Notes under the pieces: generated by a model | Databases searched by the model: none | What the model saw: the letters and a program-made list of their open reading frames with translations, nothing else | Told to the model about the DNA's origin: nothing | Made by a program: the position numbers and the translations under genes | Source of the DNA: Escherichia phage ESCO13 | DNA length: 64,000 nucleotides | Reading direction: 5' to 3' (one strand) | Sequence record: NC_047770.1 | Part shown: positions 52,607-64,000 of the stretch, piece after piece | Numbering within the stretch: position 1 is the stretch's first letter | Layout of the letters: each line of letters starts with the position of its first letter

Positions 52607-52865
52607 AGAGAATGACGCGCAGGGGCGGTGTTTGTCTCGCGCTCCCGTGTCCCCTCGCCATGTAATAAGAATAACAGATCCAGCCAGGAAAGCAAGCGAT
52701 TATTTTATCTTTACATTTCTTTACAAATATAGAGCGCCCAGCCTACCGGCGATCAACCTTCCAACCAGTGCCCCCTGGTATGTTAGCCCCGCCTTTACGC
52801 CGTGGGGTGGCGCTTCCTCTTCTGTATGTAAAACAGTATAAGCCCGATCCCTGGGCTTGTCAAGA

Positions 52866-53132
52866 TTATTTTTTGTTTTCTTGCCAGGATAGGACACCTA
52901 ACCAAAAATACATATCGCCCCGCGCCCCTGGTGGTATCTTGCTTTCCCCGCCGCCACTGCAAGCCCATAGATAACCATTTGCGAACGTATCAAAATGATC
53001 TATCTCTTCCACCTTATGATCGCCCAGGTTGAGAACGGTTTCAACCTTTAAGCCCGTTGCGCTTGCTACCTGGTGCACCGTGCCGCCTTGCCAGCCCAAT
53101 GAGTGCATAAGGTGTAATGTAGTATTTGTCAT
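52866..53132 (-). CDS. hypothetical protein in the GC-richer island
   Basis: 88 aa; preceded on the minus strand by its own promoter, 5-prime hairpin and RBS. Confidence 0.5.
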   Translation of the reverse strand: MTNTTLHLMHSLGWQGGTVHQVASATGLKVETVLNLGDHKVEEIDHFDTFANGYLWACSGGGESKIPPGARGDMYFWLGVLSWQENKK

Positions 53133-53154
53133 GGTATCGCCCTTTCTTTGATGT

Positions 53155-53207
53155 GCGCCCTGGTTGGCGCGGTAGAAAGATGATAGCCCTTTCTTTTATA
53201 TATAGCA
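53155..53207 (-). promoter_or_regulatory. minus-strand promoter TTGCTA-N17-TATCAT plus 5-prime hairpin
   Basis: -35 at 53207-53202, -10 at 53184-53179, hairpin GCGCC-AACCAG-GGCGC (53170-53155), then RBS AAAGGG and ATG at 53132; divergent from the first plus-strand cassette. Confidence 0.45.
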
Positions 53208-53241
53208 AGCAAAAAGAAAATAAAAAAGATTGAAAAAGTGA

Positions 53242-53299
53242 TTGACGTTCGCCAGGTGGCGGCATAATATTTACCACGTAGGGCGGCAATGGTGCCGCT
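53242..53299 (+). promoter_or_regulatory. promoter-hairpin cassette 1
   Basis: TTGACG-N17-TAATAT-TTACCACG-TAGGGCGGCAATGGTGCCGCT. Confidence 0.6.
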
Positions 53300-53319
53300 C
53301 ATTATTTGGAGTTAAAATC

Positions 53320-53517
53320 ATGGCAACATTGCACATTGTGGCGAAAGCTGGACAAATAAACGTGGTAGTAAACGGTTTTACTGAGTTCAGTCATCCCCAG
53401 GATGATCATGAAACGGTTTTATCTTTCATTGATTCACTGTTAGAAATGGGAGTAATTACAGAAGACCAGCACGGTACAAAATGCAAGCGCGTTAATCAAA
53501 TTGCAGGAATAGAATAA
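53320..53517 (+). CDS. small hypothetical protein
   Basis: 65 aa MATLHIVAKAGQ...; ATG after RBS GGAG, not the upstream TTG of the track ORF. Confidence 0.55.
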   Translation: MATLHIVAKAGQINVVVNGFTEFSHPQDDHETVLSFIDSLLEMGVITEDQHGTKCKRVNQIAGIE

Positions 53518-53523
53518 AAACTA

Positions 53524-53582
53524 TTGACAACAAACAACAACCTGATAAGATGTATCACATAGGGCGGGAAGTGGTTTCCCGC
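53524..53582 (+). promoter_or_regulatory. promoter-hairpin cassette 2
   Basis: TTGACA-N16-TAAGAT-GTATCACA-TAGGGCGGGAAGTGGTTTCCCGC. Confidence 0.6.
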
Positions 53583-53607
53583 TCGTAACAGAAGAGAGAT
53601 TATCATC

Positions 53608-53880
53608 ATGGCATCATATAGCGCAACAATGATCGTAGCTGGCACAACTGGTAAACCTATGAGCGGTGGCGGATCTTTCGCTAATATCAATATTGACGGG
53701 CGTTTATCCCTGGACGCAGCGATCGCTATTGCACGGGAAACATTTAAGAAAGAATGTAATTTCAACAAGCAAGATTATCTCGGTTTCGCTATTGAAAAAA
53801 CCGCGCGCTTTGTTGATTATAAAAGCCCGAAAATGGTTGATACTACACTAAAAGCGCAAGATGTAGCGTTTTTGCTTTAA
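53608..53880 (+). CDS. small hypothetical protein
   Basis: 90 aa; RBS AGAAGAGAG. Confidence 0.55.
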   Translation: MASYSATMIVAGTTGKPMSGGGSFANINIDGRLSLDAAIAIARETFKKECNFNKQDYLGFAIEKTARFVDYKSPKMVDTTLKAQDVAFLL

Positions 53881-53883
53881 GGC

Positions 53884-53939
53884 TTGACATTAACGAATAA
53901 TTTGTTAATATGTTACATAAAGCGGGAATAGTTCCCGCT
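53884..53939 (+). promoter_or_regulatory. promoter-hairpin cassette 3
   Basis: TTGACA-N16-TAATAT-GTTACATA-AAGCGGGAATAGTTCCCGCT. Confidence 0.6.
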
Positions 53940-53956
53940 ATTTGTAAGGTGGTAGA

Positions 53957-54214
53957 ATGTTTTACATCAAATTAAAAGGTCACGTGATCGCGTTCAAAGA
54001 TAACGCTTTTTACAGATTAGCAAAATATGCGTTAATACATCCCCACTATGTTTATATAAGGAGGCGTGATGAAATAAATATCTTTGATCAAACAACATGC
54101 GAGAACATCGAGATCCGCAAGGTTGGCGTACGTGATTATCGTACATCTTTCTACCCTTGCAAGGATTCAGCAAGTCTTTTTAAAGTATGCCAATTGTTGA
54201 AAAAAGGTGGTTAA
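53957..54214 (+). CDS. small hypothetical protein
   Basis: 85 aa; RBS AAGGTGG. Confidence 0.55.
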   Translation: MFYIKLKGHVIAFKDNAFYRLAKYALIHPHYVYIRRRDEINIFDQTTCENIEIRKVGVRDYRTSFYPCKDSASLFKVCQLLKKGG

Positions 54215-54215
54215 T

Positions 54216-54773
54216 ATGGGCCGCGAATATGTGATCCAGTCTTGGGTAAAACATGAAGCAGATGATCCGCGCATCATTCCCGATCATCTTATCGATGAAT
54301 CCACGGGATATAGCGGTGAGCAAATAGGTAACAGATTAGCACGTAGTAACGGCAACGTAAAAGCGCGTTATGTGCGCCCTGGCTGGCTGGCAAATGGTAA
54401 CGCTGATTTATCCAGTGCGGAAGATGCGAGCGACGGCGCGAAAGATAATCCTTTGTACAAAGTTGATCCGGCTTTTCGTGTCCTGGATGAATACCCCAGC
54501 AAGATAGCGGCGCTCGATCAGGCCCTGGAAAGTAAGCGCATCACCTGGACCGCTTACAACATGGCAAAAAACGTACTTGATGGTAAATTGATTCAAGCTG
54601 AAAGAAAATTAGCCAAAATTGCAGCCATAGCCCAGGAGGAAGACGAGGAGACAACGGAAGAGGAAGAGTACGAAGAGATCCCGCCGTTGTTGTGTGTTGA
54701 TGCTTTTCCTGATTATCAGCCGACAGAGGAAGAAAAAAGGATCGCACTAGAAAACTTTGAAAATAGTCTTTGA
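54216..54773 (+). CDS. hypothetical protein with acidic C-terminal region
   Basis: 185 aa from the ATG at 54216 (RBS AAAGGTGG); second cistron of cassette 3; EEDEETTEEEEYEE stretch. Confidence 0.55.
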   Translation: MGREYVIQSWVKHEADDPRIIPDHLIDESTGYSGEQIGNRLARSNGNVKARYVRPGWLANGNADLSSAEDASDGAKDNPLYKVDPAFRVLDEYPSKIAALDQALESKRITWTAYNMAKNVLDGKLIQAERKLAKIAAIAQEEDEETTEEEEYEEIPPLLCVDAFPDYQPTEEEKRIALENFENSL

Positions 54774-54827
54774 CATATCGCCGCCACTGGCATAATATTT
54801 ACCACGTAGGGCGGCAATGGTGCCGCT
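54770..54827 (+). promoter_or_regulatory. promoter-hairpin cassette 4
   Basis: TTGACA (overlapping the upstream stop)-N17-TAATAT-TTACCACG-TAGGGCGGCAATGGTGCCGCT; near-identical to cassette 1. Confidence 0.6.
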
Positions 54828-54855
54828 CATAGTGAAATTATGCAAGAGGCTTACA

Positions 54856-54951
54856 ATGATTAATAAAGAAAATAGCTTGACGGTTGGAACGATTAACGCT
54901 ATCATTCTAGCCGTTCCATTTTGGATTGTAGTAGCGGCTATTATTTTCTAA
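54856..54951 (+). CDS. hydrophobic micro-protein (31 aa)
   Basis: MINKENSLTVGTINAIILAVPFWIVVAAIIF; RBS AGAGG 6 nt upstream. Confidence 0.4.
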   Translation: MINKENSLTVGTINAIILAVPFWIVVAAIIF

Positions 54952-54959
54952 AAATATTC

Positions 54960-55020
54960 TTGACAACGTTTTTTAATCTGATAAGATGTATCACATAGGG
55001 CGGCGGAATACTTCCCCGCC
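54960..55020 (+). promoter_or_regulatory. promoter-hairpin cassette 5
   Basis: TTGACA-N16-TAAGAT-GTATCACA-TAGGGCGGCGGAATACTTCCCCGCC. Confidence 0.6.
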
Positions 55021-55041
55021 AAAACAAAAAAGGGTAACACA

Positions 55042-55404
55042 ATGAGCAAGCAAATCAATACTATCATGTTAAACCTGGTATCCTTCCGCGATGATATGAA
55101 AAATTTACCACGTGAAACGGTTGATATTCATGTTTCAGCTTATCGCGCCCTTATTGACATGTTACCGCTAAAACGTGATCAACATGCCGCTAACATGATG
55201 CTTAATGCTATGCTTAAAAAGATGATTCAAACGGATCTCATCCTGGCGTATGAGTATCAAGGGCGCTTATATGCTACTTACAACAAGGCGGTACCTGGTC
55301 TGGGAAGTACCGAAGAGTTGCACGGCTTAAACCTGGATCAGAACACTTGGGATAGTATGCGCCGCGTTATGGTATGGGCCGAAAGCGGTAAAATTTACGA
55401 ATAA
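55042..55404 (+). CDS. hypothetical protein
   Basis: 120 aa. Confidence 0.55.
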   Translation: MSKQINTIMLNLVSFRDDMKNLPRETVDIHVSAYRALIDMLPLKRDQHAANMMLNAMLKKMIQTDLILAYEYQGRLYATYNKAVPGLGSTEELHGLNLDQNTWDSMRRVMVWAESGKIYE

Positions 55405-55409: not shown

Positions 55410-55466
55410 TTGACACTGTTTAAAATTCTGGTATAGTTTATCACGTAGGGCGGCAATGGTGCCGCC
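55410..55466 (+). promoter_or_regulatory. promoter-hairpin cassette 6
   Basis: TTGACA-N16-TATAGT-TTATCACG-TAGGGCGGCAATGGTGCCGCC. Confidence 0.6.
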
Positions 55467-55486
55467 AACAATAAAAGGTTAACATC

Positions 55487-55666
55487 ATGACTATCATTGC
55501 AAAAACTGAGATTATAGGTTTAGATTCGATCCTCCTGGCTTATGAGGAAACTTTAAAAATGTATGTAGTGACCTATGGTGATTATGTGCGTGAATACGAA
55601 TACATTGATCTTGCTTTCGAATGTTACATTCGCCAGGTCAATAAAGCCTATAACGATTATCGTTAA
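55487..55666 (+). CDS. small hypothetical protein (59 aa)
   Basis: MTIIAKTEIIGLDSILLAYEETLKMYVVTYGDY...; below the track cutoff. Confidence 0.45.
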   Translation: MTIIAKTEIIGLDSILLAYEETLKMYVVTYGDYVREYEYIDLAFECYIRQVNKAYNDYR

Positions 55667-55685: not shown

Positions 55686-55738
55686 TTGACAATGAGTGAT
55701 AGTATAAGCATAATAACTTTTATCGGGAATACTTCCCA
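55686..55738 (+). promoter_or_regulatory. promoter-hairpin cassette 7 (variant)
   Basis: TTGACA-N17-CATAAT ... CGGGAATACTTCCC. Confidence 0.5.
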
Positions 55739-55763
55739 CTAACCAAAAAAAGAGAGTAATATC

Positions 55764-56129
55764 ATGGCTATTAATATCAATGTTTCCTCTTATGCTACCC
55801 TGGCTGACACGGCTAAAATTGAATTATCCAGCATTGAGGCGGTGCATATTAGCGCCCGTCGTTGGTTTCAACAGTCCTACGGTAACACATATTTTTCTTT
55901 AATGGTTGACGTTGAGATCGGCGGTAAACTGATCGAGGTGGTTAACGTTCCGTTTCAATATGGTTATGGTGATCATTTTGATACCGTCGCCCTGGAAGAA
56001 TTTAGCAAGGTTATTAATATGGAAGGTAAAGAGTTTTCACGCGGCGCGTATCTTTCCCGTTTTTGCCGTGACAATGGGATCACTGTATACAGTCATGCAA
56101 GCGATGTTAAACGTAAAAAAGATTTATAA
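55764..56129 (+). CDS. hypothetical protein
   Basis: 121 aa; RBS AGAGAG. Confidence 0.55.
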   Translation: MAININVSSYATLADTAKIELSSIEAVHISARRWFQQSYGNTYFSLMVDVEIGGKLIEVVNVPFQYGYGDHFDTVALEEFSKVINMEGKEFSRGAYLSRFCRDNGITVYSHASDVKRKKDL

Positions 56130-56135: not shown

Positions 56136-56194
56136 TTGACAGCACGAATAAAAAGAGTAAACTGTATTACATAGAGAGCGGGAACACTTCCCGC
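56136..56194 (+). promoter_or_regulatory. promoter-hairpin cassette 8
   Basis: TTGACA-N16-TAAACT-GTATTACA-TAGAGAGCGGGAACACTTCCCGC. Confidence 0.55.
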
Positions 56195-56218
56195 CTCACT
56201 GAAAAAGAGATTAACATC

Positions 56219-56458
56219 ATGGCTAAATCAAAAATGTTCTTAGGTCACAAAAATAAAACTCATTGGAATGTAAGCCTTTGGATTAATAACGACGAATCAT
56301 TATATCGGTTGGCGAAAGAATTTATCGCCGCTAATACTAATCGTAATGATGCTGCCCGTGATATGATGTTATTCCTGGAACAAACTGGACAAGATAAAAC
56401 TCCAGACGGTTTCAAGTATAGTAAAACTGCAATCCGTGCCGCGATGGTTGGAATGTAA
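56219..56458 (+). CDS. small hypothetical protein
   Basis: 79 aa. Confidence 0.55.
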   Translation: MAKSKMFLGHKNKTHWNVSLWINNDESLYRLAKEFIAANTNRNDAARDMMLFLEQTGQDKTPDGFKYSKTAIRAAMVGM

Positions 56459-56467: not shown

Positions 56468-56526
56468 TTGACAACGTTTAAAATTAGTGTAAGATGTATC
56501 ACATAGGGCGGGAAATGGTTTCCCGC
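56468..56526 (+). promoter_or_regulatory. promoter-hairpin cassette 9
   Basis: TTGACA-N16-TAAGAT-GTATCACA-TAGGGCGGGAAATGGTTTCCCGC. Confidence 0.6.
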
Positions 56527-56549
56527 TCACAACAGAGAGATTAAAGATT

Positions 56550-56777
56550 ATGGCTATCAATATTGTTCGCGTATCCGGCACCGTTGGCTATTCCCAGGTT
56601 GTAGCAGTTGTAACAAACAAAAAGATTAATGATGTATGTGAGATCTTGAATAAGTGGGCTATTGCTAATTTTGGAGAATATGCAAGCGTCGAGTACATCG
56701 AATCCTACCAGGTGCCGACCATCAGCCTAACCGATCTCAACGTTGATCGCCTGTTATGCCTGGATGAATTAAACTAA
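56550..56777 (+). CDS. small hypothetical protein
   Basis: 75 aa. Confidence 0.55.
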   Translation: MAINIVRVSGTVGYSQVVAVVTNKKINDVCEILNKWAIANFGEYASVEYIESYQVPTISLTDLNVDRLLCLDELN

Positions 56778-56784: not shown

Positions 56785-56841
56785 TTGACAAGATAACTAA
56801 AATCAGTAAAATGTAATGCATAGGGCGGCAATAGTGCCGCT
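56785..56841 (+). promoter_or_regulatory. promoter-hairpin cassette 10
   Basis: TTGACA-N16-TAAAAT-GTAATGCA-TAGGGCGGCAATAGTGCCGCT. Confidence 0.6.
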
Positions 56842-56863
56842 CATAGTAAGAGGGATTATCAAA

Positions 56864-57079
56864 ATGGCTAATATCCGCACACTGTTAAAAAATGCAAGTC
56901 AAGTTTTATTTTCAGATGACGAGTATTTCAATAAAGACATTACAGGCGTGAAAAATTTAAAAGACGTTAAGGATGTAATAGGTATTCGAGGATCTTTACG
57001 TAAAGGTGACTACTACGGCAATAAAGTACAATATAAATTAAATCAGTCTTATGATTTTACTTTGACAATTATTTCATAA
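56864..57079 (+). CDS. small hypothetical protein
   Basis: 71 aa from MANIRTLLK (RBS AAGAGGGA). Confidence 0.55.
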   Translation: MANIRTLLKNASQVLFSDDEYFNKDITGVKNLKDVKDVIGIRGSLRKGDYYGNKVQYKLNQSYDFTLTIIS

Positions 57080-57085: not shown

Positions 57086-57147
57086 TTGCAATCTTAATAA
57101 AATAAAGTAAACTGTATTACATCAAGGCGGCGGAATGGTCCACCGCC
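57086..57147 (+). promoter_or_regulatory. promoter-hairpin cassette 11
   Basis: TTGCAA-N16-TAAACT-GTATTACA-TCAAGGCGGCGGAATGGTCCACCGCC. Confidence 0.55.
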
Positions 57148-57171
57148 TAACAAAGAGAAGAGGAAAACATC

Positions 57172-57339
57172 ATGATCACTTTCGCTACCCGTGAAGCCGC
57201 TCGCAACGTTGCCCGTAAAGTTAACGCCGCCAACCTGGGCGCTACGCTTAAAGCCCCTGTAAAAGATGAATCAGGAAAATGGATCTTCCCTGGTCTGCGT
57301 CATGCTGACAAGTTAGGTACTTTAAGCCTTAAAAAATAA
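57172..57339 (+). CDS. small basic protein (55 aa)
   Basis: MITFATREAARNVARKVNAANLGATLKAPVKDESGKWIFPGLRHADKLGTLSLKK; below the track cutoff. Confidence 0.45.
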   Translation: MITFATREAARNVARKVNAANLGATLKAPVKDESGKWIFPGLRHADKLGTLSLKK

Positions 57340-57342: not shown

Positions 57343-57380
57343 TTGACTTTTCGTTATAGCGCCTTATAATGGGCGCTATA
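57343..57380 (+). promoter_or_regulatory. consensus promoter TTGACT-N16-TATAAT inside a 9-bp inverted repeat
   Basis: TATAGCGCC-TTATAATG-GGCGCTATA (57355-57380) brackets the -10 hexamer; operator-like. Confidence 0.5.
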
Positions 57381-57413
57381 GAGAAGAGAAACCACTACTA
57401 ACAAGGAAACATC

Positions 57414-57635
57414 ATGATCACTTTCGCTATTGTCGCCGTTGTCGCTGGTCAGGTTTACATAAACGATACATTCACCACAGAAGACAAGGCCGCAGGAGAC
57501 ATAACCGCCGTTTACAATGAGTGCAAGGCAGTAGAAAGGATGTTAGCGCCTTGTATGCTAATGAGTGAACGCCAGGACGGGATAACAGTATTTACTAACA
57601 TTGAAACAGGGTACCAAATGGTAGTAACAAAATAA
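57414..57635 (+). CDS. small hypothetical protein
   Basis: 73 aa; shares the MITFA N-terminus with the preceding ORF. Confidence 0.55.
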   Translation: MITFAIVAVVAGQVYINDTFTTEDKAAGDITAVYNECKAVERMLAPCMLMSERQDGITVFTNIETGYQMVVTK

Positions 57636-57638: not shown

Positions 57639-57695
57639 TTGACACGGATTTAATTTTTAGTAAACTGTTACACGTAGGGCGGGAATAGTTCCCGC
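57639..57695 (+). promoter_or_regulatory. promoter-hairpin cassette 13
   Basis: TTGACA-N16-TAAACT-GTTACACG-TAGGGCGGGAATAGTTCCCGC. Confidence 0.6.
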
Positions 57696-57714
57696 TCAAA
57701 AAGAGAGAAAGACC

Positions 57715-58068
57715 ATGAAAGCACAAAATGCAATTAAAGAGTACATCCTTGCCGCTATCGATTTTAATGATTACGGTATTACAACCGAAAAAGAGAAGAT
57801 CGCGGAATTGATGCGCCGTTTTAATTCCGAGTACTGGTACCCTGATAACCAATCACGTTTTAATTATAGTATTGTTAAAGCACTTGCATCATGGTTACAA
57901 GGCTTGCCATCAGATATCAATATCGCTTTCGAATATTGGGAAATTGATCGCCTGTTAACATCCTGGGGATACATTAAAGAGAATAGCAGCGATGATAAAA
58001 TCCAACGAGAAAGGGAAAATTATTGGCTTTATATTGCAGGCGTGATCCTTGCTTGCTCTTATGAATGA
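57715..58068 (+). CDS. hypothetical protein
   Basis: 117 aa. Confidence 0.55.
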   Translation: MKAQNAIKEYILAAIDFNDYGITTEKEKIAELMRRFNSEYWYPDNQSRFNYSIVKALASWLQGLPSDINIAFEYWEIDRLLTSWGYIKENSSDDKIQRERENYWLYIAGVILACSYE

Positions 58069-58074: not shown

Positions 58075-58128
58075 TTGACAATTTTACAAAACAGTTTAAA
58101 TTAACAATATAGCGGCAATGGTGCCGCT
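58075..58128 (+). promoter_or_regulatory. promoter-hairpin cassette 14
   Basis: TTGACA-N16-TAAATT-AACAATAT-AGCGGCAATGGTGCCGCT. Confidence 0.55.
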
Positions 58129-58147
58129 CATATGAAGAGGAAACAAA

Positions 58148-58294: not shown

Positions 58295-58303
58295 CATAAC
58301 AAG

Positions 58304-58329: not shown

Positions 58330-58350
58330 ACATGTAGAGGATAAACAAAG

Positions 58351-58536
58351 ATGACTTTAAGCGAGCTTAAAACAGCCTACAACGCAACGTTAAAAATAGC
58401 CGTGCGTTACCGTGACGAATACGGTTTTATTGCGCAGGGCGTGATCCTGGGCTTTTCTGACGATGGTTTGATCTATGTTGATGCACATCACAATAAGGTT
58501 AAACCTGAAAACGTCATTAGCATAAAATATCTTTAA
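58351..58536 (+). CDS. small hypothetical protein
   Basis: 61 aa; RBS GAGGA; no own promoter seen (read-through?). Confidence 0.5.
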   Translation: MTLSELKTAYNATLKIAVRYRDEYGFIAQGVILGFSDDGLIYVDAHHNKVKPENVISIKYL

Positions 58537-58542: not shown

Positions 58543-58600
58543 TTGACACCATAACCGGACCTGTTAAACTGTATTACATCAGGCGGGGAATAGTTCCCAC
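58543..58600 (+). promoter_or_regulatory. promoter-hairpin cassette 15
   Basis: TTGACA-N16-TAAACT-GTATTACA-TCAGGCGGGGAATAGTTCCCACC. Confidence 0.55.
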
Positions 58601-58620
58601 CATACAAAAAGGTAAATATT

Positions 58621-58827
58621 ATGATCACCGCAAAACAAGAAAAAATCATTATCGACGTTGCAGCCGTTGCCGCTATTGCTATTATTGGATCTTATTATGA
58701 CACCGCGCGTCCTTCCTCCTTGCATGAGGTCGCCGCCGTTGCATCAGTTGGCGTACTGTTTTACGTTGGTAAACGCTATTTATCACCAATGATTAACAAG
58801 CTGACACCGTGGAAAAATAAAGGTTGA
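58621..58827 (+). CDS. small membrane protein
   Basis: 68 aa; hydrophobic stretches IIIDVAAVAAIAIIGSYY and VAAVASVGVLFYV. Confidence 0.55.
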   Translation: MITAKQEKIIIDVAAVAAIAIIGSYYDTARPSSLHEVAAVASVGVLFYVGKRYLSPMINKLTPWKNKG

Positions 58828-58883
58828 TCCTGTTTTATATTGTGTTATAGTTATCGTGTAGGGCGGCAATGGTGCCGCGCCCT
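58824..58883 (+). promoter_or_regulatory. promoter-hairpin cassette 16
   Basis: TTGATC (overlapping the upstream stop)-N16-TATAGT-TATCGTG-TAGGGCGGCAATGGTGCCGCGCCC. Confidence 0.55.
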
Positions 58884-58898
58884 TTTGAGGATGCAATC

Positions 58899-59183
58899 AT
58901 GAGTAAAGCTAACACCGTGCTAATGTTTTCCCTGATTAATGATTCCGCTTACTTGTCCAACATGACGCAGGAGGGTAACACATTAACGGCAACATTCACC
59001 AATAAGCTTGACCGGGTGATCATCGTCTCACTGAAAACAGTTAGTAAAGGCTTTTACTCGTTAGCTTATCATTGGATCACCGATACCGATGAGACAAGCC
59101 AGGACTATAGCACCCCTTTCCCTGAATCAATGGCACGGGAGGTCATCGCCGCCGTTGTAAATGATGGTTTGTTTACTGCATAA
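58899..59183 (+). CDS. hypothetical protein
   Basis: 94 aa from MSKANTVLMFSL. Confidence 0.55.
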   Translation: MSKANTVLMFSLINDSAYLSNMTQEGNTLTATFTNKLDRVIIVSLKTVSKGFYSLAYHWITDTDETSQDYSTPFPESMAREVIAAVVNDGLFTA

Positions 59184-59201: not shown

Positions 59202-59258
59202 TTGCAATCATTTTGAGATAGTGTATATTTAATTCATAGGGCGGCGGGAATAGTTCCC
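59202..59258 (+). promoter_or_regulatory. promoter-hairpin cassette 17
   Basis: TTGCAA-N16-TATATT-TAATTCA-TAGGGCGGCGGGAATAGTTCCC. Confidence 0.55.
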
Positions 59259-59281
59259 AAAGCAAACGAGAGGATTACACG

Positions 59282-59401
59282 ATGAGCAAGTACACAGTAG
59301 AATACACGGTAGAAAATCCGGCAGTATCCGAAGGTAAAAAGATGACATTTGCCATCAGTATAATCGCTTTCGTTATCACTATCTTATCAATCATCTTATA
59401 A
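59282..59401 (+). CDS. micro-protein with C-terminal TM helix (39 aa)
   Basis: MSKYTVEYTVENPAVSEGKKMTFAISIIAFVITILSIIL; RBS GAGAGG. Confidence 0.4.
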   Translation: MSKYTVEYTVENPAVSEGKKMTFAISIIAFVITILSIIL

Positions 59402-59411
59402 GGTGCGTACT

Positions 59412-59573
59412 ATGAAAACAACAGACATTATCAAAGAGATCGCCCTTGCCGCTGACGTTGAGATCGAGGAAGTGATCGCGCTCAACCTTACAGAAAACGA
59501 TCTGCGCAACTATGAAGCGGAAAGCGTGAAAGCAAGCGGCGCGGTCCTGGCATATAATCCGGCTAACAAGTAA
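59412..59573 (+). CDS. small acidic protein (53 aa)
   Basis: MKTTDIIKEIALAADVEIEEVIALNLTENDLRNYEAESVKASGAVLAYNPANK; RBS AAGGTG. Confidence 0.4.
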   Translation: MKTTDIIKEIALAADVEIEEVIALNLTENDLRNYEAESVKASGAVLAYNPANK

Positions 59574-59694: not shown

Positions 59695-59751
59695 TTGACA
59701 AGTCCGCCTAGTCTGATAATATGTATCTTGTAGGGCGGCAATGGTGCCGCT
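59695..59751 (+). promoter_or_regulatory. promoter-hairpin cassette 18
   Basis: TTGACA-N16-TAATAT-GTATCTTG-TAGGGCGGCAATGGTGCCGCT. Confidence 0.6.
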
Positions 59752-59771
59752 CACAAGAAGAGAGAAAAATC

Positions 59772-60056
59772 ATGAAAATCACAAAAAGCCTAACTAATTA
59801 TGCAGCACGTCGCGGATTATGTTTAACCGTTGAAAACTTAGGGAAAGAAGACTTTTTGTGTTTTTGGGAGCTTGAAAATGATTGCGAGTGGATGTTTTCT
59901 TATTCTATCTGCGAAGATCAAAACGGTTGTTTGTTAACCTGGCGCGGTAATATCTATTTACCGGAAGAAATTAAAGAAGAGTTACCAGGTACGATCATGA
60001 CAGAGAGACAGCTTAAGGAAGTGATCAATTTTGTAGGGCAAAACATTAAAAAATAA
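59772..60056 (+). CDS. Cys-rich hypothetical protein
   Basis: 94 aa from MKITKSLTNYAARRG; several Cys. Confidence 0.55.
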   Translation: MKITKSLTNYAARRGLCLTVENLGKEDFLCFWELENDCEWMFSYSICEDQNGCLLTWRGNIYLPEEIKEELPGTIMTERQLKEVINFVGQNIKK

Positions 60057-60057: not shown

Positions 60058-60119
60058 TTGACAGTAGGCAAACAACGTAGTAAAGTTTATTACATAGAGC
60101 GGCGGAATGGTCCACCGCT
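60058..60119 (+). promoter_or_regulatory. promoter-hairpin cassette 19
   Basis: TTGACA-N17-TAAAGT-TTATTACA-TAGAGCGGCGGAATGGTCCACCGCT. Confidence 0.55.
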
Positions 60120-60141
60120 CACAACAGAAGAGAAACAAATC

Positions 60142-60312
60142 ATGATCCCGACTATGTTTTATGTATCGCGCAAAGGTCACAATATTTTTTGGTCTGAAGA
60201 TTTAAATGAAGCTATGACGTTTGCCCGTGATCGTGTTGCTATCGGTGGCGTTAATATCACCGTGACCGATGAAAACGGCATTGAATACTATAACGGCGAT
60301 GATGAAGAGTAA
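60142..60312 (+). CDS. small hypothetical protein (56 aa)
   Basis: MIPTMFYVSRKGHNIFWSEDLNEAMTFARDRVAIGGVNITVTDENGIEYYNGDDEE. Confidence 0.5.
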   Translation: MIPTMFYVSRKGHNIFWSEDLNEAMTFARDRVAIGGVNITVTDENGIEYYNGDDEE

Positions 60313-60318
60313 TCAACA

Positions 60319-60338
60319 AGGCGGGATTAATCCCGCCT
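60319..60338 (+). other. perfect 20-bp palindrome AGGCGGGATTAATCCCGCCT (promoter-less intercistronic hairpin)
   Basis: Preceded by TAATCAACAA; no -35/-10 pair and no U-tract. Confidence 0.5.
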
Positions 60339-60356
60339 ATATTAAAGGGTAATACA

Positions 60357-60494
60357 ATGAAAACTTTCAACGCAACAGCCTCGACAATTGGTTATATTAT
60401 TACAGTGCAAGCCGTGGATCTGGTAGCAGCAGCAAACAAGATTAAAAAGATGATCCCGCCAGGTAGTGAATTTTCCGTTTGGGAAGTAAAATAA
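60357..60494 (+). CDS. small hypothetical protein (45 aa)
   Basis: MKTFNATASTIGYIITVQAVDLVAAANKIKKMIPPGSEFSVWEVK; RBS AAAGGG. Confidence 0.4.
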   Translation: MKTFNATASTIGYIITVQAVDLVAAANKIKKMIPPGSEFSVWEVK

Positions 60495-60497: not shown

Positions 60498-60559
60498 TTG
60501 ACAATAATTTGTTATCTGATAAAGTGTATTACGTAGGGCGGGGCAATGGTGCAACGCCC
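60498..60559 (+). promoter_or_regulatory. promoter-hairpin cassette 21
   Basis: TTGACA-N16-TAAAGT-GTATTACG-TAGGGCGGGGCAATGGTGCAACGCCC. Confidence 0.55.
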
Positions 60560-60577
60560 ATTAATGAGGGTAGAATC

Positions 60578-60682
60578 ATGTTAGAGAAAATTTTCACGGT
60601 TGTAATAGTGGGCCTGGCGTTATCGGTTGGAGTGGTTGCAACTATGGCTAACATGATCCTATCTTCCCACGGTATCGGTTAA
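60578..60682 (+). CDS. hydrophobic micro-protein (34 aa)
   Basis: MLEKIFTVVIVGLALSVGVVATMANMILSSHGIG; RBS GAGGG. Confidence 0.4.
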   Translation: MLEKIFTVVIVGLALSVGVVATMANMILSSHGIG

Positions 60683-60692
60683 GGTGAAACAA

Positions 60693-60908
60693 ATGATCAC
60701 GAACAAAACAGGCAAAACGGAATTTTTACGCGGCTTACAAGTTGGTAAGCCTGAGATCTGGCATTGCACGAAGTCCGCGCATAATGAAATGAAAGATTTC
60801 ACCGCTACTTTACAACGTGTTAAAATATCTATTACGCAGAAAAAAGCCTTATTAGTAGTAGAAAACGAGATCCCGCAAACCATTATTATTGTCGAGCGTA
60901 CAGCATGA
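60693..60908 (+). CDS. small hypothetical protein
   Basis: 71 aa from MITNKTGKTE (RBS AAGGTGA). Confidence 0.5.
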   Translation: MITNKTGKTEFLRGLQVGKPEIWHCTKSAHNEMKDFTATLQRVKISITQKKALLVVENEIPQTIIIVERTA

Positions 60909-61291
60909 AAACAGAAATCATTAACGAAATCATCAACGGCTATAAAGAAGCCTTTATTTTTGCTGAATCAGCAAGGGATCATGAAGGTAATTTTATAGAT
61001 GACATGACTGATTATGATTTTTCAGATCAAGCCCATCAACGGATCGCCCAGGATGTAACAGCCTTTATTAATGCTAATCTTGCCGCTATCTCTGAGGCAA
61101 TGAGCGACGGCGCAACAGCCAACCAGATCGGGAATGATTTACATTTTACCCGTAACGGTCACGGCGTAGGATTTTGGGATCGCCCTGAAATATACACCAC
61201 TAACACGGCGAACCGCCTAACAAATGCAGCTAAGTTTATGCCGAACGTGTCGGCTTACATTGGTGAAGATAATTTGATTTATATTGAATAA
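60905..61291 (+). CDS. hypothetical protein
   Basis: 128 aa; ATGA overlap. Confidence 0.55.
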   Translation: MKTEIINEIINGYKEAFIFAESARDHEGNFIDDMTDYDFSDQAHQRIAQDVTAFINANLAAISEAMSDGATANQIGNDLHFTRNGHGVGFWDRPEIYTTNTANRLTNAAKFMPNVSAYIGEDNLIYIE

Positions 61292-61297
61292 AAAGTA

Positions 61298-61354
61298 TTG
61301 ACACAGATCGCCAGTGTGCTAATATTTACCACGTAGGGCGGCAATGGTGCCGCC
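61298..61354 (+). promoter_or_regulatory. promoter-hairpin cassette 22
   Basis: TTGACA-N16-TAATAT-TTACCACG-TAGGGCGGCAATGGTGCCGCC. Confidence 0.6.
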
Positions 61355-61372
61355 GATAATGAGGAAAATAAA

Positions 61373-61672
61373 ATGGAAACTATCGCTATTGTTACCGTAG
61401 AAAAACTGGTTGTTGGTGATGTGTTCGCGTTAATGGTGCCTAACAGCAGCAAACTGGGCGCTTATGAAGTGATGGACCATAAAAATGAATCATTTGGCGA
61501 CGGTTGCACAATGGCGGTAAAATCCTTAAAGGATGGAATCATCCGCCAGGCTAACTGGCACAAAGGGAATCAAGTCGGTTTAATATCAGCTAATTTCTTG
61601 CCAGAAGAGCAAACGTTAGACCAACTATCAGGCGGTAAGACGTTAGCCGAACTACTGGAAACAGCGATCTAA
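61373..61672 (+). CDS. hypothetical protein
   Basis: 99 aa; RBS GAGGAAAA. Confidence 0.55.
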   Translation: METIAIVTVEKLVVGDVFALMVPNSSKLGAYEVMDHKNESFGDGCTMAVKSLKDGIIRQANWHKGNQVGLISANFLPEEQTLDQLSGGKTLAELLETAI

Positions 61673-61680
61673 TCAACAAA

Positions 61681-61696
61681 GGGGCGGCAACGCCCC
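61681..61696 (+). other. promoter-less intercistronic hairpin GGGGCG-GCAA-CGCCCC
   Basis: Preceded by TAATCAACAAA; no U-tract. Confidence 0.45.
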
Positions 61697-61716
61697 ACAT
61701 CAGAAAGGAAAAGATT

Positions 61717-61953
61717 ATGAGTATTGCAACAGTATTAAACGCCGTTAAAACCGCTGAATCATCCGGCTTGCATGTTGAGCTTATAGATCAACCAGGTGGC
61801 GATCTCCTTGTCCAGGTTTACCCGCCGAAAGTAGGGGATGATTATTATTGGGCTTATTCTGATACGTTCGAACAAGTAGACACGAAAGCGATCACGGCTT
61901 TTATTTTAAAAGCTATTGAAGAAAATAACTTTCATCATAACATCAATCAATAA
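61717..61953 (+). CDS. small hypothetical protein
   Basis: 78 aa. Confidence 0.55.
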   Translation: MSIATVLNAVKTAESSGLHVELIDQPGGDLLVQVYPPKVGDDYYWAYSDTFEQVDTKAITAFILKAIEENNFHHNINQ

Positions 61954-61962
61954 ACCATAAGC

Positions 61963-61978
61963 GGGGCGGTAACGCCCC
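61963..61978 (+). other. promoter-less intercistronic hairpin GGGGCG-GTAA-CGCCCC
   Basis: Same hairpin family as 61681-61696. Confidence 0.45.
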
Positions 61979-62007
61979 ATTAAACGCAATAGGAAGAGGA
62001 TAGACGC

Positions 62008-62292
62008 ATGAAAAACATGATCGCAGTAGTTGCCCTAGTTGTTGGTATTAACGCGCCTGTACTGGCTAATGAGTTGCCAGAATCCATCACGTTAACCGAT
62101 ATCAACGCAGTGAACCGGATCGGTGTTAATTATCGCCTATGCCTTGCCGCTAAAACTTTCCAGGATGGCACAACAGAGTACTACGGATTCGAGGGTATCC
62201 GGTGCGGTGAGCTTGCACGCGACCTTAAGGAAGATCCAGACCTTGAGGCCATACCGATGACCGTAAACGGTAAAGCTTACGTAAGCCGCTAA
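62008..62292 (+). CDS. secreted/periplasmic small protein
   Basis: 94 aa; signal peptide MKNMIAVVALVVGINAPVLA. Confidence 0.55.
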   Translation: MKNMIAVVALVVGINAPVLANELPESITLTDINAVNRIGVNYRLCLAAKTFQDGTTEYYGFEGIRCGELARDLKEDPDLEAIPMTVNGKAYVSR

Positions 62293-62294
62293 CC

Positions 62295-62429
62295 ATGAGA
62301 AAGGTAATCATCACAATGGGGATCGTAGTAGCAACGCTGGCGCTTATTCCCTTCATGGTTGAACATGTGCTGATCAATGTTGTCCTGGTAGTCAGCGACC
62401 TATTAGAAACGGTTGGCAACTGGTTTTAA
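62295..62429 (+). CDS. hydrophobic micro-protein (44 aa)
   Basis: MRKVIITMGIVVATLALIPFMVEHVLINVVLVVSDLLETVGNWF; starts 2 nt after the upstream stop. Confidence 0.4.
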   Translation: MRKVIITMGIVVATLALIPFMVEHVLINVVLVVSDLLETVGNWF

Positions 62430-62438
62430 GATAAATAA

Positions 62439-62468
62439 ACAGGGCTTGCAATAGTCCTGTTTTTTGTT
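62439..62468 (+). terminator. rho-independent terminator
   Basis: ACAGGGC-TTGCAATA-GTCCTGT followed by TTTTTTGTT. Confidence 0.55.
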
Positions 62469-62606
62469 ATACTTATTGAACGGGCGGCACCTGGGAGCAG
62501 GGGAAGATAATCACCGGAAGACCCCGCTATATATATTGATAGCTAACACCTATCAAACAACAAAACATCAAAGAGATAAACTATCAAATCTTTACAATCC
62601 CACCTA

Positions 62607-62664
62607 TTGACACCGGATCACGCTTACATTATTATTTATCACGTAGGGCGGGAATGTTTCCCAC
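62607..62664 (+). promoter_or_regulatory. promoter-hairpin cassette 24
   Basis: TTGACA-N17-TATTAT-TTATCACG-TAGGGCGGGAATGTTTCCCAC. Confidence 0.55.
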
Positions 62665-62683
62665 CTGATTTAGGAGTCATATC

Positions 62684-62917
62684 ATGATCGAACAAATTAA
62701 AAGCACTACACCAAATGTTAACGGTAATGTTTCTCACTTTATCGGGGATAATGAAAGAGGTACACCGTACGCCGCCGTAACCGTTCAACCTAACGGGGAT
62801 TATTGGTTTACCGTGTACGGATCTTACTCTTTTGGACGTTCGGCACATGATAAGATCTTGCAAGTGGTTAAGCCTACTGGGAAGAATATCACAGCAGAAA
62901 AATTTTATAAAAAATAA
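62684..62917 (+). CDS. small hypothetical protein
   Basis: 77 aa; RBS AGGAG. Confidence 0.55.
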   Translation: MIEQIKSTTPNVNGNVSHFIGDNERGTPYAAVTVQPNGDYWFTVYGSYSFGRSAHDKILQVVKPTGKNITAEKFYKK

Positions 62918-62918
62918 C

Positions 62919-62978
62919 TTGCTTTATAGCTCCTGTTAACTTATAGTTATTGCGTAGGGCGAGCAATACAGCAAGCCC
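62919..62978 (+). promoter_or_regulatory. promoter-hairpin cassette 25 (degenerate)
   Basis: TTGCTT-N17-TATAGT-TATTGCG-TAGGGCGAGCAATACAGCAAGCCC. Confidence 0.45.
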
Positions 62979-62995
62979 ACAAAGAGGAAAATAAA

Positions 62996-63364
62996 ATGAG
63001 CAAATCAGCAATTAAAGCACTTGAAAAAGCACAAGAAGTGATCGCAACGTCAACCACTGGCGCAAAGGTTAATCTCGTTGGTTATCTGACAGATGAAACT
63101 ATCCGTAAAAATTGGCGTAATGCTGATTTACTGGCTTGCTTATTGATTAATAGTGTCGCTAATGCTTTCCAGTGTGAAACAGCCGAGAGCCTGGAGGAAA
63201 ACTTGTTTGATAATATGGATCAAGCCATTGAAACCTATATTCAATCAAATTTAGATAGCTGGAACAGTAAAACATGGCCCGACAATTTACGCGATACAAC
63301 TGATCAACTGATCCGCCTTGCCCTGATGGTTGAACGCGATAACGTTCACAACCGCACAAAGTAA
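62996..63364 (+). CDS. hypothetical protein
   Basis: 122 aa; RBS AAGAGGAAA. Confidence 0.55.
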   Translation: MSKSAIKALEKAQEVIATSTTGAKVNLVGYLTDETIRKNWRNADLLACLLINSVANAFQCETAESLEENLFDNMDQAIETYIQSNLDSWNSKTWPDNLRDTTDQLIRLALMVERDNVHNRTK

Positions 63365-63375
63365 GATTATACAAG

Positions 63376-63395
63376 GGGCGCACTAAGCGCCCTTT
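63376..63395 (+). terminator. hairpin / weak terminator
   Basis: GGGCGC-ACTAA-GCGCCC followed by a short TTT; same hairpin family as 58304 and 63940. Confidence 0.4.
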
Positions 63396-63422
63396 AACGT
63401 AAAGAAATGTAAATAATGCGCT

Positions 63423-63459
63423 ATCCCCTATTGACAGGGGATCGGCGTTATATTATATT
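63423..63459 (+). promoter_or_regulatory. sigma70 promoter TTGACA-N17-TATATT with an inverted repeat over the -35
   Basis: ATCCCCT-ATTGAC-AGGGGAT (63423-63442) flanks the -35; no 5-prime hairpin. Confidence 0.5.
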
Positions 63460-63504
63460 TAACTCACTGGCAGCAAACAACGAAACGAAACAAAGGATAA
63501 CACT

Positions 63505-63924
63505 ATGAACATTAAATCAAATAATCCAGCTTACTCCTTCGATAACGCTTTTTGTCACGGTAGCGCCGCCAAAGGCTTCGAAATCGATGGTAAATTGGTT
63601 ATCGTGAACGTTGACGGGGAAGAGGTTGCAGTGTATCCGGTAAACGATGTTAAAAGCCGTTTACAATGCCGCATGGATGTTACCGCATATCAGCTTGATC
63701 CGGTCCGTGTAGTTGCCCTGGTGTTAGAGGAAGAGATCAAAGCAATGCATCACAGTAATAAGTTTATTGGTGACGCGCAGGATAATATGAACGTTTGCCG
63801 CCATAAAGTTAATGAAGCATTGAAAGAATGCGGTTTTAAGGATCTGATGATTAAACGTGATGAAAAATTCCGCTTTCGTAATGACCTGGCAAACCGGATC
63901 TACTCAATCTATGAAGCGTTATAA
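63505..63924 (+). CDS. hypothetical protein
   Basis: 139 aa; RBS AAAGGA. Confidence 0.55.
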   Translation: MNIKSNNPAYSFDNAFCHGSAAKGFEIDGKLVIVNVDGEEVAVYPVNDVKSRLQCRMDVTAYQLDPVRVVALVLEEEIKAMHHSNKFIGDAQDNMNVCRHKVNEALKECGFKDLMIKRDEKFRFRNDLANRIYSIYEAL

Positions 63925-63939
63925 TTGACAACAAAACAA

Positions 63940-63965
63940 GGGCGCACCAAGCGCCCTTTCTTTTT
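63940..63965 (+). terminator. rho-independent terminator
   Basis: GGGCGC-ACCAA-GCGCCC followed by TTTCTTTTT; near-identical to the terminator at 58304. Confidence 0.6.
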
Positions 63966-64000
63966 GCCCGAACAATGTTGATAGCTTTCGCCTATGAAAA

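Follow-up and report, generated by a model that had tools for sequence, protein, structure and literature searches.

The promoter-early stem-loop (PeSL) cassettes of T4-type phages, in which a sigma-70-type early promoter and a GC-rich stem-loop stand upstream of ORFans, are found in hyperplastic regions, the most variable part of these genomes; according to the published proposal, cassettes are shuffled by way of these motifs, which would serve as homologous linkers, and the stem-loops would function as terminator or attenuator (Arbiol et al. 2010, PMC2839356; Comeau et al. 2014, PMC4122927). When the first PeSL paper was searched by terms, no mention of GC content, codon usage or base composition was found (PMC2839356). 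In the present work we describe an array of about 24 similar units in Escherichia phage ESCO13 (NC_047770.1), which lies in an island of bacterial-type composition. The stretch analysed, called the window in the following, comprises 64,000 nucleotides (nt), and the island occupies its end, from about 52.6 kb onward. In view of the empty term search, the host-type dinucleotide composition of the island would be a feature added to those of the PeSL cassettes. A preliminary description had noted by eye that the DNA becomes GC-richer at this point, and the shift proves to be real by tests of GC, of GC at third codon positions (GC3), and of codon, dinucleotide and tetranucleotide usage. What it consists of is a 12-kb stretch of bacterial-type dinucleotide and codon composition, rather than a general rise in GC.

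Autonomous promoter-plus-gene units of deviant composition were reportedly described as morons by Juhala et al. and by Hendrix et al. in 2000, and are said to have been read as lateral acquisitions. Morons are single insertions in temperate phages, usually bracketed by terminators and expressed from the prophage. A difference in codon usage between the early and late genes of T4 was reportedly noted by Cowe and Sharp in 1991. For a set of 14 phages, codon usage has been found to depend on the time of expression, the early genes of lambda being host-like (PMC5683454). Finally, Kropinski et al. (2013, PMC3606486) described a region of phage rV5 (92269-121323) that contains 88 mainly small open reading frames (ORFs) and many consensus E. 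coli promoters, and they reported that the composition gives little evidence of horizontal acquisition.

The Phapecoctavirus record OP562383.1 matches positions 52620-64000 over the whole stretch with 96.5% identity, and the window corresponds to about 83.5-147.6 kb of this record; many further records of the Stephanstirmvirinae match too. On these matches the source phage is a Phapecoctavirus of the Stephanstirmvirinae, that is, a phAPEC8-like virulent myovirus of about 150 kb. The references used were most of the remaining part of OP562383.1, two regions of E. coli K-12 and eight further phage loci, and the whole-genome tests span about 149 kb. The codon adaptation index (CAI) was referred to 24 E. 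coli ribosomal-protein genes and the usage of average genes to 27 ordinary E. coli genes, while the island is represented by a set of 32 genes. A search of IMG/VR with one island protein gave a single locus, and GenBank phage records were used in its place.

We begin with the size of the shift. The total GC content is 39.2% in 1-52619 and 41.6% in 52620-64000, a rise of only 2.4 points, and in the sliding-window profile the island has the highest GC among 527 windows of 11.4 kb. The beginning of the window (1-11000) is nearly at the island level, with 41.3%, because of its GC at second codon positions (GC2), that is, its amino-acid content. The pooled GC3 is 0.30-0.31 in the backbone genes, 0.35 in the 45.8-52.1 kb block and 0.41-0.42 in the 32 island genes, while GC at first positions and GC2 are the same in the island as elsewhere. 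The GC3 difference is significant whether the island genes are compared with all other genes (Mann-Whitney p = 2e-10) or only with the other short ones (p = 1e-7). Calculated by blocks of 32 consecutive genes over the genome of about 149 kb, the mean GC3 is 0.412 for the island block and 0.313 +/- 0.023 for the others, with a maximum of 0.371, and the whole-genome profile peaks in the island. The main third-position change is from T to C, the fraction of C rising from 0.13-0.17 to 0.22-0.26. Inside the island the coding sequence has a GC content of 42.1% and the intergenic sequence 41.6%. The intergenic hairpins can be ruled out as the source of the GC rise, as the coding sequence alone shows the effect, and these repeated elements are therefore not its cause.

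The change is limited to codons that have C or G at the second position; there is no rise of GC3 in NAY and NAR codons and a small one in GTN and CTN codons. Because of this restriction, the dinucleotides were examined. The relative abundance (rho) of CpG is 0.73 in the backbone, 1.19 in the island and 1.18 in E. coli. In the same order, the values are 1.00, 1.32 and 1.26 for GpC, 1.03, 0.80 and 0.81 for AG/CT, and 0.89, 1.06 and 1.09 for AT. The Karlin distance (delta*) between the island and the remaining phage is 159, compared to 29 +/- 11 (maximum 55) for null windows of 11.4 kb, and the distance to E. coli is 74, or 65 for coding sequence only, compared to 143 +/- 16 (minimum 117) for the null windows. 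The tetranucleotide z-scores of the island correlate with those of the phage at 0.37, as against 0.81 +/- 0.03 for the null windows. The signature is present in all three codon phases. At the junction between codons (3|1), CpG goes from 0.72 in the backbone to 1.15 in the island, E. coli having 1.12, and at positions 2,3 the corresponding GpC values are 0.93, 1.65 and 1.69. Since AG and CT fall jointly, and the minus-strand gene behaves alike, the effect is a strand-symmetric one on dinucleotides at the DNA level. Chi sites, a possible reason for host-like sequence, are absent from the window.

The feature so defined is the following.

52620-64000, no strand: compositional island, delimited by GC3, rho and its edges; it runs past the window end by about 1 kb, judging from relatives.

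At the left edge, over the stretch from about 52.0 to 53.0 kb, rho CpG rises from 0.7 to 1.2, and at the right edge, as seen in OP562383.1, it drops back within 1-2 kb of the end of the array. No second run of CpG-normal windows was found across the genome. The specificity of the signature was assessed with 75 gamma-proteobacterial ribosomal-operon loci, which are a poor proxy; among the loci listed, rho CpG is at least 1.0 and rho GpC at least 1.14, so that host specificity is limited. The delta* from the island to the E. coli ribosomal-protein region is 119-132, as against 74 to the ordinary E. coli region. As the ribosomal-operon region is atypical even in E. coli, we claim only a bacterial, gamma-proteobacterial-type signature. 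CpG is depleted in the backbones of all four groups (Phapecoctavirus, Justusliebigvirus, Vequintavirus and the jumbo Asteriusvirus; rho 0.6-0.75), and in Phapecoctavirus this depletion extends to the codon junctions.

We now turn to codon usage, for which the preliminary description had named CTG, GCG, CGC and CCG as the codons favoured beyond 52.6 kb. In terms of relative synonymous codon usage (RSCU), CGC, CCG and GCG do rise, by factors of 3.9, 4.0 and 2.2, whereas CTG rises merely by 1.35, and TTA goes up too. The usage can be called host-like in that it moves towards average E. coli genes, but not towards the ribosomal-protein genes. The RSCU correlation with average E. coli genes goes from 0.09 in the backbone to 0.59 in the island. 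In its direction, the shift correlates better with the path to average usage (rho = 0.84) than with that to ribosomal-protein usage (rho = 0.53). CGT, GGT, GCT, TCT and ACT, which the ribosomal-protein genes prefer, are rarer in the island, and TTC, TAC, AAC, GAC and CAC are flat, so there is no shift towards translationally optimal codons.

The island genes have a median CAI of 0.42 and the backbone genes one of 0.35-0.39, with 0.44 for average E. coli genes and 0.70 for ribosomal-protein genes. The five genes with the highest CAI (0.62-0.69), far above the island, all lie outside it and have low or ordinary GC3. They are located at OP562383.1 63862-64863 and its neighbours and, in the window, within 10.7-45.3 kb. 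Two of the five sit in the block containing the head genes, where the top-CAI ORF of 334 amino acids (aa) is presumably, from its size, the major head gene. Translational selection of the classical kind thus operates on a few genes elsewhere in the genome and not on the early array, and codon optimisation for high expression does not account for the composition of the island. The earlier proposal that the island was selected for high, immediate expression by the translation apparatus of the host is thus mostly not borne out: the CAI is only at the level of average genes, the codons of ribosomal-protein type fall, the best-adapted genes are elsewhere, and the shift reaches codon junctions. One part of it does fit, namely that the island makes less use of codons which phage tRNAs read or which the host seldom uses (AGA falls to 0.29 of the backbone value, GGA to 0.53, CCA to 0.69, CGA, a poorly read codon, to 0.16 and ATA to 0.79). 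The window contains no tRNA gene, and the phage tRNA set is taken from a relative, which encodes tRNAs for AGA, GGA, ACA, CAA and CCA among others.

By both RSCU correlation and median CAI the island is nearer to host codon usage than the backbone is, which is the pattern described for expression-time classes, as is the lower frequency of codons served by phage tRNAs. It differs from that pattern in being a sharply bounded block instead of a class average, from which the downstream block of small ORFs is excluded. It also differs in being directed towards average instead of optimal host usage, and in being mainly a CpG/GpC effect that reaches the codon junctions.

The island coincides with the array. 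Each of its approximately 24 units has the order TTGACA-N16-18-TAnnnT, about 10 nt, a GC-rich hairpin, a purine-rich ribosome-binding site (RBS), ATG and a small ORF, with 1-4 ORFs per unit. A typical hairpin sequence is GGGCGGCAATGGTGCCGC or GGCGGGAA..TTCCCGCC, and the stabilities are mostly -9 to -20 kcal/mol. Perfect or near-perfect consensus sigma-70 promoters occur 20 times in 11.4 kb, where 0.86 are expected by chance, and only 2 are found in the next 18.7 kb, which consist of small plus-strand ORFs of backbone composition. The GC-rich intergenic hairpins noted in the preliminary description are real: 19 of the 21 strong promoters are followed by one, with -5.5 to -19.6 kcal/mol, and 18 of these have -9 kcal/mol or stronger. 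The 20 consensus promoters suggest that the genes of the array are immediate-early, or first-wave, genes; a literature search for transcriptomes of this phage group gave nothing usable. The array also contains many dispersed repeats of 40-70 nt. Of 20 island proteins scanned against Pfam, 19 have no family and one matches DUF7249, and a search of the island against Rfam gave no match. The genes and units, with their predicted promoters and hairpins, are listed below.

52866-53132, minus strand: the only minus-strand gene of the island, 88 aa, GC3 0.49, no Pfam match.
53242-53517, plus strand: unit 1, promoter 53242-53270, hairpin 53281-53300, ORF 53320-53517 (65 aa).
53524-53880, plus strand: unit 2, promoter 53524-53551, hairpin 53562-53584, ORF 53608-53880 (90 aa).
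53884-54773, plus strand: unit 3, promoter 53884-53911, hairpin 53921-53939, ORFs 53957-54214 (85 aa) and 54216-54773 (185 aa).
54770-54951, plus strand: unit 4, promoter 54770-54798, hairpin within 54803-54834, ORF 54856-54951 (31 aa).
54960-55404, plus strand: unit 5, promoter 54960-54987, hairpin 54999-55020, ORF 55042-55404 (120 aa).
55410-55666, plus strand: unit 6, promoter 55410-55437, hairpin 55445-55469, ORF 55487-55666 (59 aa).
55686-56129, plus strand: unit 7, promoter 55686-55714, weak hairpin 55725-55737, ORF 55764-56129 (121 aa).
56136-56458, plus strand: unit 8, promoter 56136-56163, hairpin 56174-56197, ORF 56219-56458 (79 aa, DUF7249).
56468-56777, plus strand: unit 9, promoter 56468-56495, hairpin 56506-56528, ORF 56550-56777 (75 aa).
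56785-57079, plus strand: unit 10, promoter 56785-56812, hairpin within 56817-56848, ORF 56864-57079 (71 aa).
57086-57339, plus strand: unit 11, degenerate promoter TTGCAA-16-TAAACT 57086-57113, hairpin about 57126-57147, ORF 57172-57339 (55 aa).
57343-57635, plus strand: unit 12, promoter TTGACT-16-TATAAT 57343-57370, without hairpin, ORF 57414-57635 (73 aa).
57639-58068, plus strand: unit 13, promoter 57639-57666, hairpin 57677-57697, ORF 57715-58068 (117 aa).
58075-58330, plus strand: unit 14, promoter 58075-58102, hairpin within 58107-58133, ORF 58148-58294 (48 aa).
58301-58323, plus strand: intrinsic terminator of unit 14, followed by a T-run.
58351-58536, plus strand: ORF with RBS (61 aa), own promoter not recognisable.
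58543-58827, plus strand: unit 15, promoter 58543-58570, hairpin 58582-58601, ORF 58621-58827 (68 aa).
58824-59183, plus strand: unit 16, promoter 58824-58851, hairpin from 58861, ORF 58899-59183 (94 aa).
59202-59573, plus strand: unit 17, weak promoter 59202-59229, GGGAA..TTCCC hairpin about 59240-59262, ORFs 59282-59401 (39 aa) and 59412-59573 (53 aa, GC3 0.58).
59695-60056, plus strand: unit 18, promoter 59695-59722, hairpin 59727-59757, ORF 59772-60056 (94 aa).
60058-60494, plus strand: unit 19, promoter 60058-60086, hairpin 60097-60120, ORF 60142-60312 (56 aa), then second hairpin 60319-60338 and ORF 60357-60494 (45 aa).
60498-61291, plus strand: unit 20, promoter 60498-60525, hairpin 60536-60559, ORFs 60578-60682 (34 aa), 60693-60908 (71 aa) and 60905-61291 (128 aa).
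61298-62470, plus strand: unit 21, promoter 61298-61325, hairpin 61337-61354, ORFs 61373-61672, 61717-61953, 62008-62292 and 62295-62429, inter-ORF GC hairpins 61681-61696 and 61962-61979, terminator 62437-62462.
62607-62917, plus strand: unit 22, promoter 62607-62635, hairpin from 62646, ORF 62684-62917 (77 aa).
62919-63400, plus strand: unit 23, degenerate promoter TTGCTT-17-TATAGT 62919-62947, GTAGGGCG motif, ORF 62996-63364 (122 aa), GC hairpin about 63374-63396.
63431-63966, plus strand: unit 24, promoter 63431-63459, without hairpin, ORF 63505-63924 (139 aa), terminator 63938-63958 followed by a T-run.

The composite motif that characterises the PeSL cassettes, a sigma-70-like promoter with an adjacent stem-loop, is thus present here as repeat families D1-D9 with 20-21 promoters, upstream of ORFans and in the region that is most variable among close relatives. 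As in the PeSL case, the content of the approximately 24 units varies among close relatives, and cassettes are common to several phage families. There are also differences. The carrier belongs to the Stephanstirmvirinae and is not a T4-type myovirus, and the stem-loop follows the -10 element, so as to open the transcript, has no T-run and looks like a hairpin of the 5' untranslated region, unlike the terminator or attenuator that the PeSL stem-loops are proposed to be. Since the hairpins start about 10 nt past the -10 element, a few bases beyond the predicted transcription start, and lack a T-run, they resemble 5'-terminal stem-loops. By analogy with known 5' stem-loops of E. coli mRNAs, they may stabilise the transcripts. 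Only three canonical intrinsic terminators were found on the plus strand.

With the morons, the array has in common that it consists of autonomous promoter-gene units whose composition is unlike that of the neighbours. Unlike morons, the units, of which there are about 24, make up one contiguous series in the genome of a virulent phage, and a clear terminator follows only three of them. The carrier is from a virulent family and the island has no match in E. coli chromosomes, so that a temperate phage with expression from the prophage is not what is found here.

The suggestion of a horizontally acquired module is borne out in the form of a module exchanged between phages, not of a capture from the host. 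At four-fold degenerate sites, the identity to Justusliebigvirus is 70-71% in the island, 34-46% in two upstream blocks and 53-54% in the downstream block. Synonymous singletons within the genus amount to about 6.9% of third positions in the island and 4.6% in the control, and because synonymous variation in the island is not reduced, constraint does not explain the similarity across genera. Vequintavirus and 121Q-like jumbo phages have matches to parts of the island with 80-88% nucleotide identity, while the backbones do not align. Homologues of 10 of the 32 island proteins lie inside the equivalent island of the jumbo phage, whereas the backbone proteins have only two marginal matches in it, both outside its island. 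In five close relatives 24-32 of the 32 island genes are present, as against 13 of 13 genes of the neighbouring block, and among genomes with at least 94% identity the coverage of the island ranges from 26% to 100%.

The signature itself recurs in three further lineages, where it rises over the array as it does here (Justusliebigvirus, Vequintavirus and the jumbo Asteriusvirus). The Justusliebigvirus array is nearly identical in composition (delta* 14, rho CpG 1.18). Over the small plus-strand ORFs of Vequintavirus and the jumbo Asteriusvirus, rho CpG is 0.9-1.05 and 1.1-1.3, respectively, compared to 0.6-0.7 in their backbones, and promoter-hairpin-RBS linkers of the same kind are found in the loci of both, those of the jumbo phage with the promoter and the GGGAA..TTCCC hairpin. 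This bears on the rV5 region, which is homologous or analogous to the array: promoter-hairpin units and a CpG-normal stretch occur in a Vequintavirus relative, and, unlike the published analysis, the dinucleotides show a clear island in this close relative. The published statement about little compositional evidence of horizontal acquisition needs revising.

On this basis the account we put first, although tentatively and with somewhat less than even confidence, is that the island is a horizontally exchanged, PeSL-like compartment of early cassettes with its own compositional history. The shift at 52.6 kb would then be the border between two evolutionary compartments, namely a backbone that is AT-rich at third positions and CpG-depleted, and an island, extending to just past 64 kb, that would be an array of about 24 autonomous immediate-early units. 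Judged by sequence comparison, the linker architecture and many of the gene families are common to the CpG-normal islands of other genera and families, and the similarity between islands is far above that between backbones. Co-infecting phages would swap cassettes by recombination at the conserved promoter-hairpin linkers, as has been proposed for the PeSL cassettes of T4-type phages. On this account the array would have the composition of a shared pool, not that of the resident backbone. The composition of this pool would be of enterobacterial type, with CpG and GpC over-represented, AG/CT under-represented, CGC, CCG, GGC, GCC, GCG and AGC raised, and AGA, CGA and GGA lowered. The pool could stay host-like through an unseen reservoir in replicons that are replicated by the host machinery, followed by slow amelioration, through weak selection on genes that have to work in a naive host, or through both.

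The direction of substitution was followed in six Phapecoctavirus genomes. Among the synonymous singletons of the island, 48 are AT-to-GC and 79 GC-to-AT, which implies an equilibrium GC3 of 0.30, compared to 0.42 now (p = 0.0075), and when polarised with an outgroup the counts are 63 and 90 (p = 0.035). The upstream control is balanced, with 46 AT-to-GC and 39 GC-to-AT, whereas the downstream control block leans towards GC-to-AT (46 and 62). The fixed differences, with tiny counts, show no AT-to-GC excess. In the backbone, CpG transitions are 2.4 times as frequent as non-CpG transitions (12.8% and 5.3%, p = 0.012, from close relatives).

It is necessary to state what weighs against the exchange of cassettes as the explanation. 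The GC-to-AT excess of the island exceeds that of the controls only marginally: relative to the upstream control the Fisher p is 0.024, when the downstream control is pooled with it the contrast weakens to p = 0.085, and an amelioration of the island towards the backbone composition is therefore only suggested. The island has no CpG-specific decay (8.0% for CpG and 7.9% for non-CpG transitions, with small counts), its rho CpG equals the E. coli value (1.19) instead of being intermediate, and the value in Justusliebigvirus is alike (1.18) in spite of about 0.4 substitutions per four-fold site, as estimated from the identity of 0.70. A few genes further on, in block D, reach four-fold identities of 0.63-0.68, and this block is not clearly different. 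As to a reservoir with the host signature, megablast of the island against 5,426 E. coli genomes gave no match, and for two island proteins every homologue is phage-borne, on phage-sized contigs of Vequintavirus, of 121Q-like jumbo phages and of a few other phages. If the cassettes live only in CpG-depleted virulent phages, exchange alone cannot explain why their composition is different. The early timing, too, is deduced from the promoters.

A possible, although on balance unlikely, alternative to cassette exchange is selection in situ. The island genes would be transcribed and translated by the unmodified host before the phage tRNAs and takeover factors are present, and host-type sequence would be favoured, be it in codons or perhaps in codon context, mRNA stability or surveillance features, while the backbone would be free to drift towards A/T-ending codons served by phage tRNAs and towards CpG avoidance. 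The exact coincidence of the island with the sigma-70 promoter array, here and in three lineages with different backbones, speaks for it, as do the depletion of codons that are read by phage tRNAs or rare in the host (AGA, GGA, CCA, CGA, ATA), a rho CpG and GpC at the host value instead of an intermediate one, and the lack of CpG-specific decay. An excess of rare GC-to-AT variants together with a stable composition is also what weak selection against a mutation bias would give, and differences between early and late codon usage, with host-like early genes in lambda, are documented (PMC5683454). It is more difficult to reconcile with this proposal that CGT, GGT, GCT, TCT and ACT fall while TTC, TAC, AAC, GAC and CAC stay flat, and that the CAI only reaches the level of average genes when the late structural genes have 0.62-0.69 with no shift in GC3 or CpG. 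Most of the change is moreover from T to C inside codon pairs that are read by the same tRNA; these T/C pairs share one tRNA in E. coli. In addition, the effect is strand-symmetric, present at codon junctions and in the minus-strand gene, and the synonymous diversity of the island is not reduced.

Another option considered is a regional bias of repair, which we regard as improbable. Here the linker repeats would make the array a recombination hot spot, and host mismatch repair of the heteroduplexes, being GC-biased and having the context preferences of the host, would raise GC3 and locally imprint a host-type dinucleotide signature. The many dispersed repeats of 40-70 nt, the signs of frequent exchange, and a shift that is strand-symmetric, affects synonymous and junction sites only and has sharp limits at the ends of the array all agree with such a process, and so do rare variants going from GC to AT while the composition stays GC-richer. 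In the literature on bacterial GC-biased gene conversion, the latter combination is used as an argument for such conversion. A general AT-to-GC conversion should, though, also affect the NAY and NAR codons, whose GC3 is not raised, and the GTN and CTN codons, where it is little raised. The fixed differences, in their tiny counts, have no AT-to-GC excess either.

We also consider it doubtful, to much the same degree, that several unrelated large virulent coliphages with CpG-depleted backbones actively keep their immediate-early arrays host-type, that is, with CpG and GpC not depleted, because the signature is functional. Such a signature could be a mimicry of host nucleic acid while the phage is exposed to host surveillance, or it could be a tag by which a later phage function treats host and early-phage transcripts or DNA alike at the switch from early to middle expression.

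A recent one-off capture of DNA from a host chromosome, a prophage or a plasmid is very improbable and largely refuted. The dinucleotide signature does resemble that of the supposed donor, with the delta* of 74 to E. coli (65 for coding only), and the boundaries are sharp. Homologues in host genomes or mobile elements were not found, neither in the 5,426 E. coli genomes nor in plasmids, save for one 137.6-kb non-mobilizable record; as this record matches the same island segments as the Vequintavirus genomes do, it probably represents a phage genome of Vequintavirus-like type. The island proteins are ORFans confined to phages, and there is no integrase, tRNA or flanking direct repeat, none of the annotations in about 108 of the 149 kb of a complete relative being an integrase. 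The island is found in several genera and families and is therefore old. Lastly, the notion that no real feature exists, but only a by-eye impression from GC-rich hairpins or chance, for which one could cite the difference of just 2.4 points in total GC and the equally GC-rich 1-11 kb, is refuted by the GC3, codon, dinucleotide and tetranucleotide tests, which separate the island from every other window, also with coding sequence only.

These results have some wider consequences. The small early ORFans of big virulent coliphages appear to form a cross-family gene pool on standard promoter-hairpin linkers, and are a likely home of host-takeover and anti-defence genes. The CpG and GpC relative abundances, together with the density of sigma-70 promoters, give a cheap marker for such arrays that needs the sequence only. 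If the signature is functional, a rho CpG scan would locate immediate-early (anti-defence, takeover) genes in uncharacterised phages. The choice between ancestry, selection in the naive host and repair bias can be made with existing genome collections and recoding experiments.

Turning to single genes of the array, the minus-strand gene at 52866-53132 has 97% amino-acid identity to Justusliebigvirus, with 36 of 38 four-fold sites the same. The ORF of unit 5 has homologues in Vequintavirus and the jumbo phage, the gene of unit 8 is common to Vequintavirus, jumbo phages and other phages, and the ORF of unit 24 has 89% amino-acid identity to Vequintavirus. At 56864-57079 (unit 10), relatives have a 70-aa ORF labelled as phosphoribosylpyrophosphate synthetase, for which Pfam gives no support. 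In unit 16, the start annotated in relatives (58869, giving a 104-aa ORF) lies in the loop of the hairpin; the true start is more likely to be the ATG at 58899, which is preceded by a GAGGA RBS.

At the left edge of the island, two further elements were found.

52089-52619, no strand: AT-rich non-coding spacer at the left boundary, 29.5% GC, in which relatives annotate no coding sequence.
52594-52863, minus strand: candidate non-coding transcript, promoter 52863-52835, terminator-like hairpin 52616-52594.

The spacer lies between a gene annotated as GTP cyclohydrolase II and the island, and it contains an inverted-repeat motif, AAATGA..ATTCTCATTT, in three copies spaced 29 nt, as well as a direct repeat whose copies are separated by 138 nt. 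An operator, an iteron or an origin-like element is conceivable for this spacer. The promoter of the candidate transcript (TTGACA-17-TATACT, 11 of 12 positions matching) reads leftwards into about 235 nt of GC-rich sequence with no annotated coding sequence. The stretch has 77-83% identity to unannotated Klebsiella phage DNA, its fold z-score is only -1.9, and Rfam gives no match; it is possibly a phage small RNA.

After the last unit, relatives have about 1.5 kb with no annotated gene (MH051333.1 28361-29917; OP562383.1 147577-148647 and 1-380). Several GenBank records are linearised near this gene-free stretch, which may be close to the physical genome ends or the packaging site.

Some remarks can be made about the records used. 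In the jumbo phage CMSTMSU (MH494197.1 111066-151311), the CpG-normal stretch, at 18.5-40 kb of the locus, is very sparsely annotated, and several tblastn matches are split across frames, which suggests sequencing frameshifts in this UNVERIFIED record. The host labels Campylobacter, Acinetobacter and Pseudomonas on MG065689.1, MG065644.1, MG065677.1, MG065658.1, OP562383.1 and OR584014.1 look doubtful; these six are Stephanstirmvirinae and Vequintavirinae genomes very near to coliphages, and several of them are flagged UNVERIFIED.

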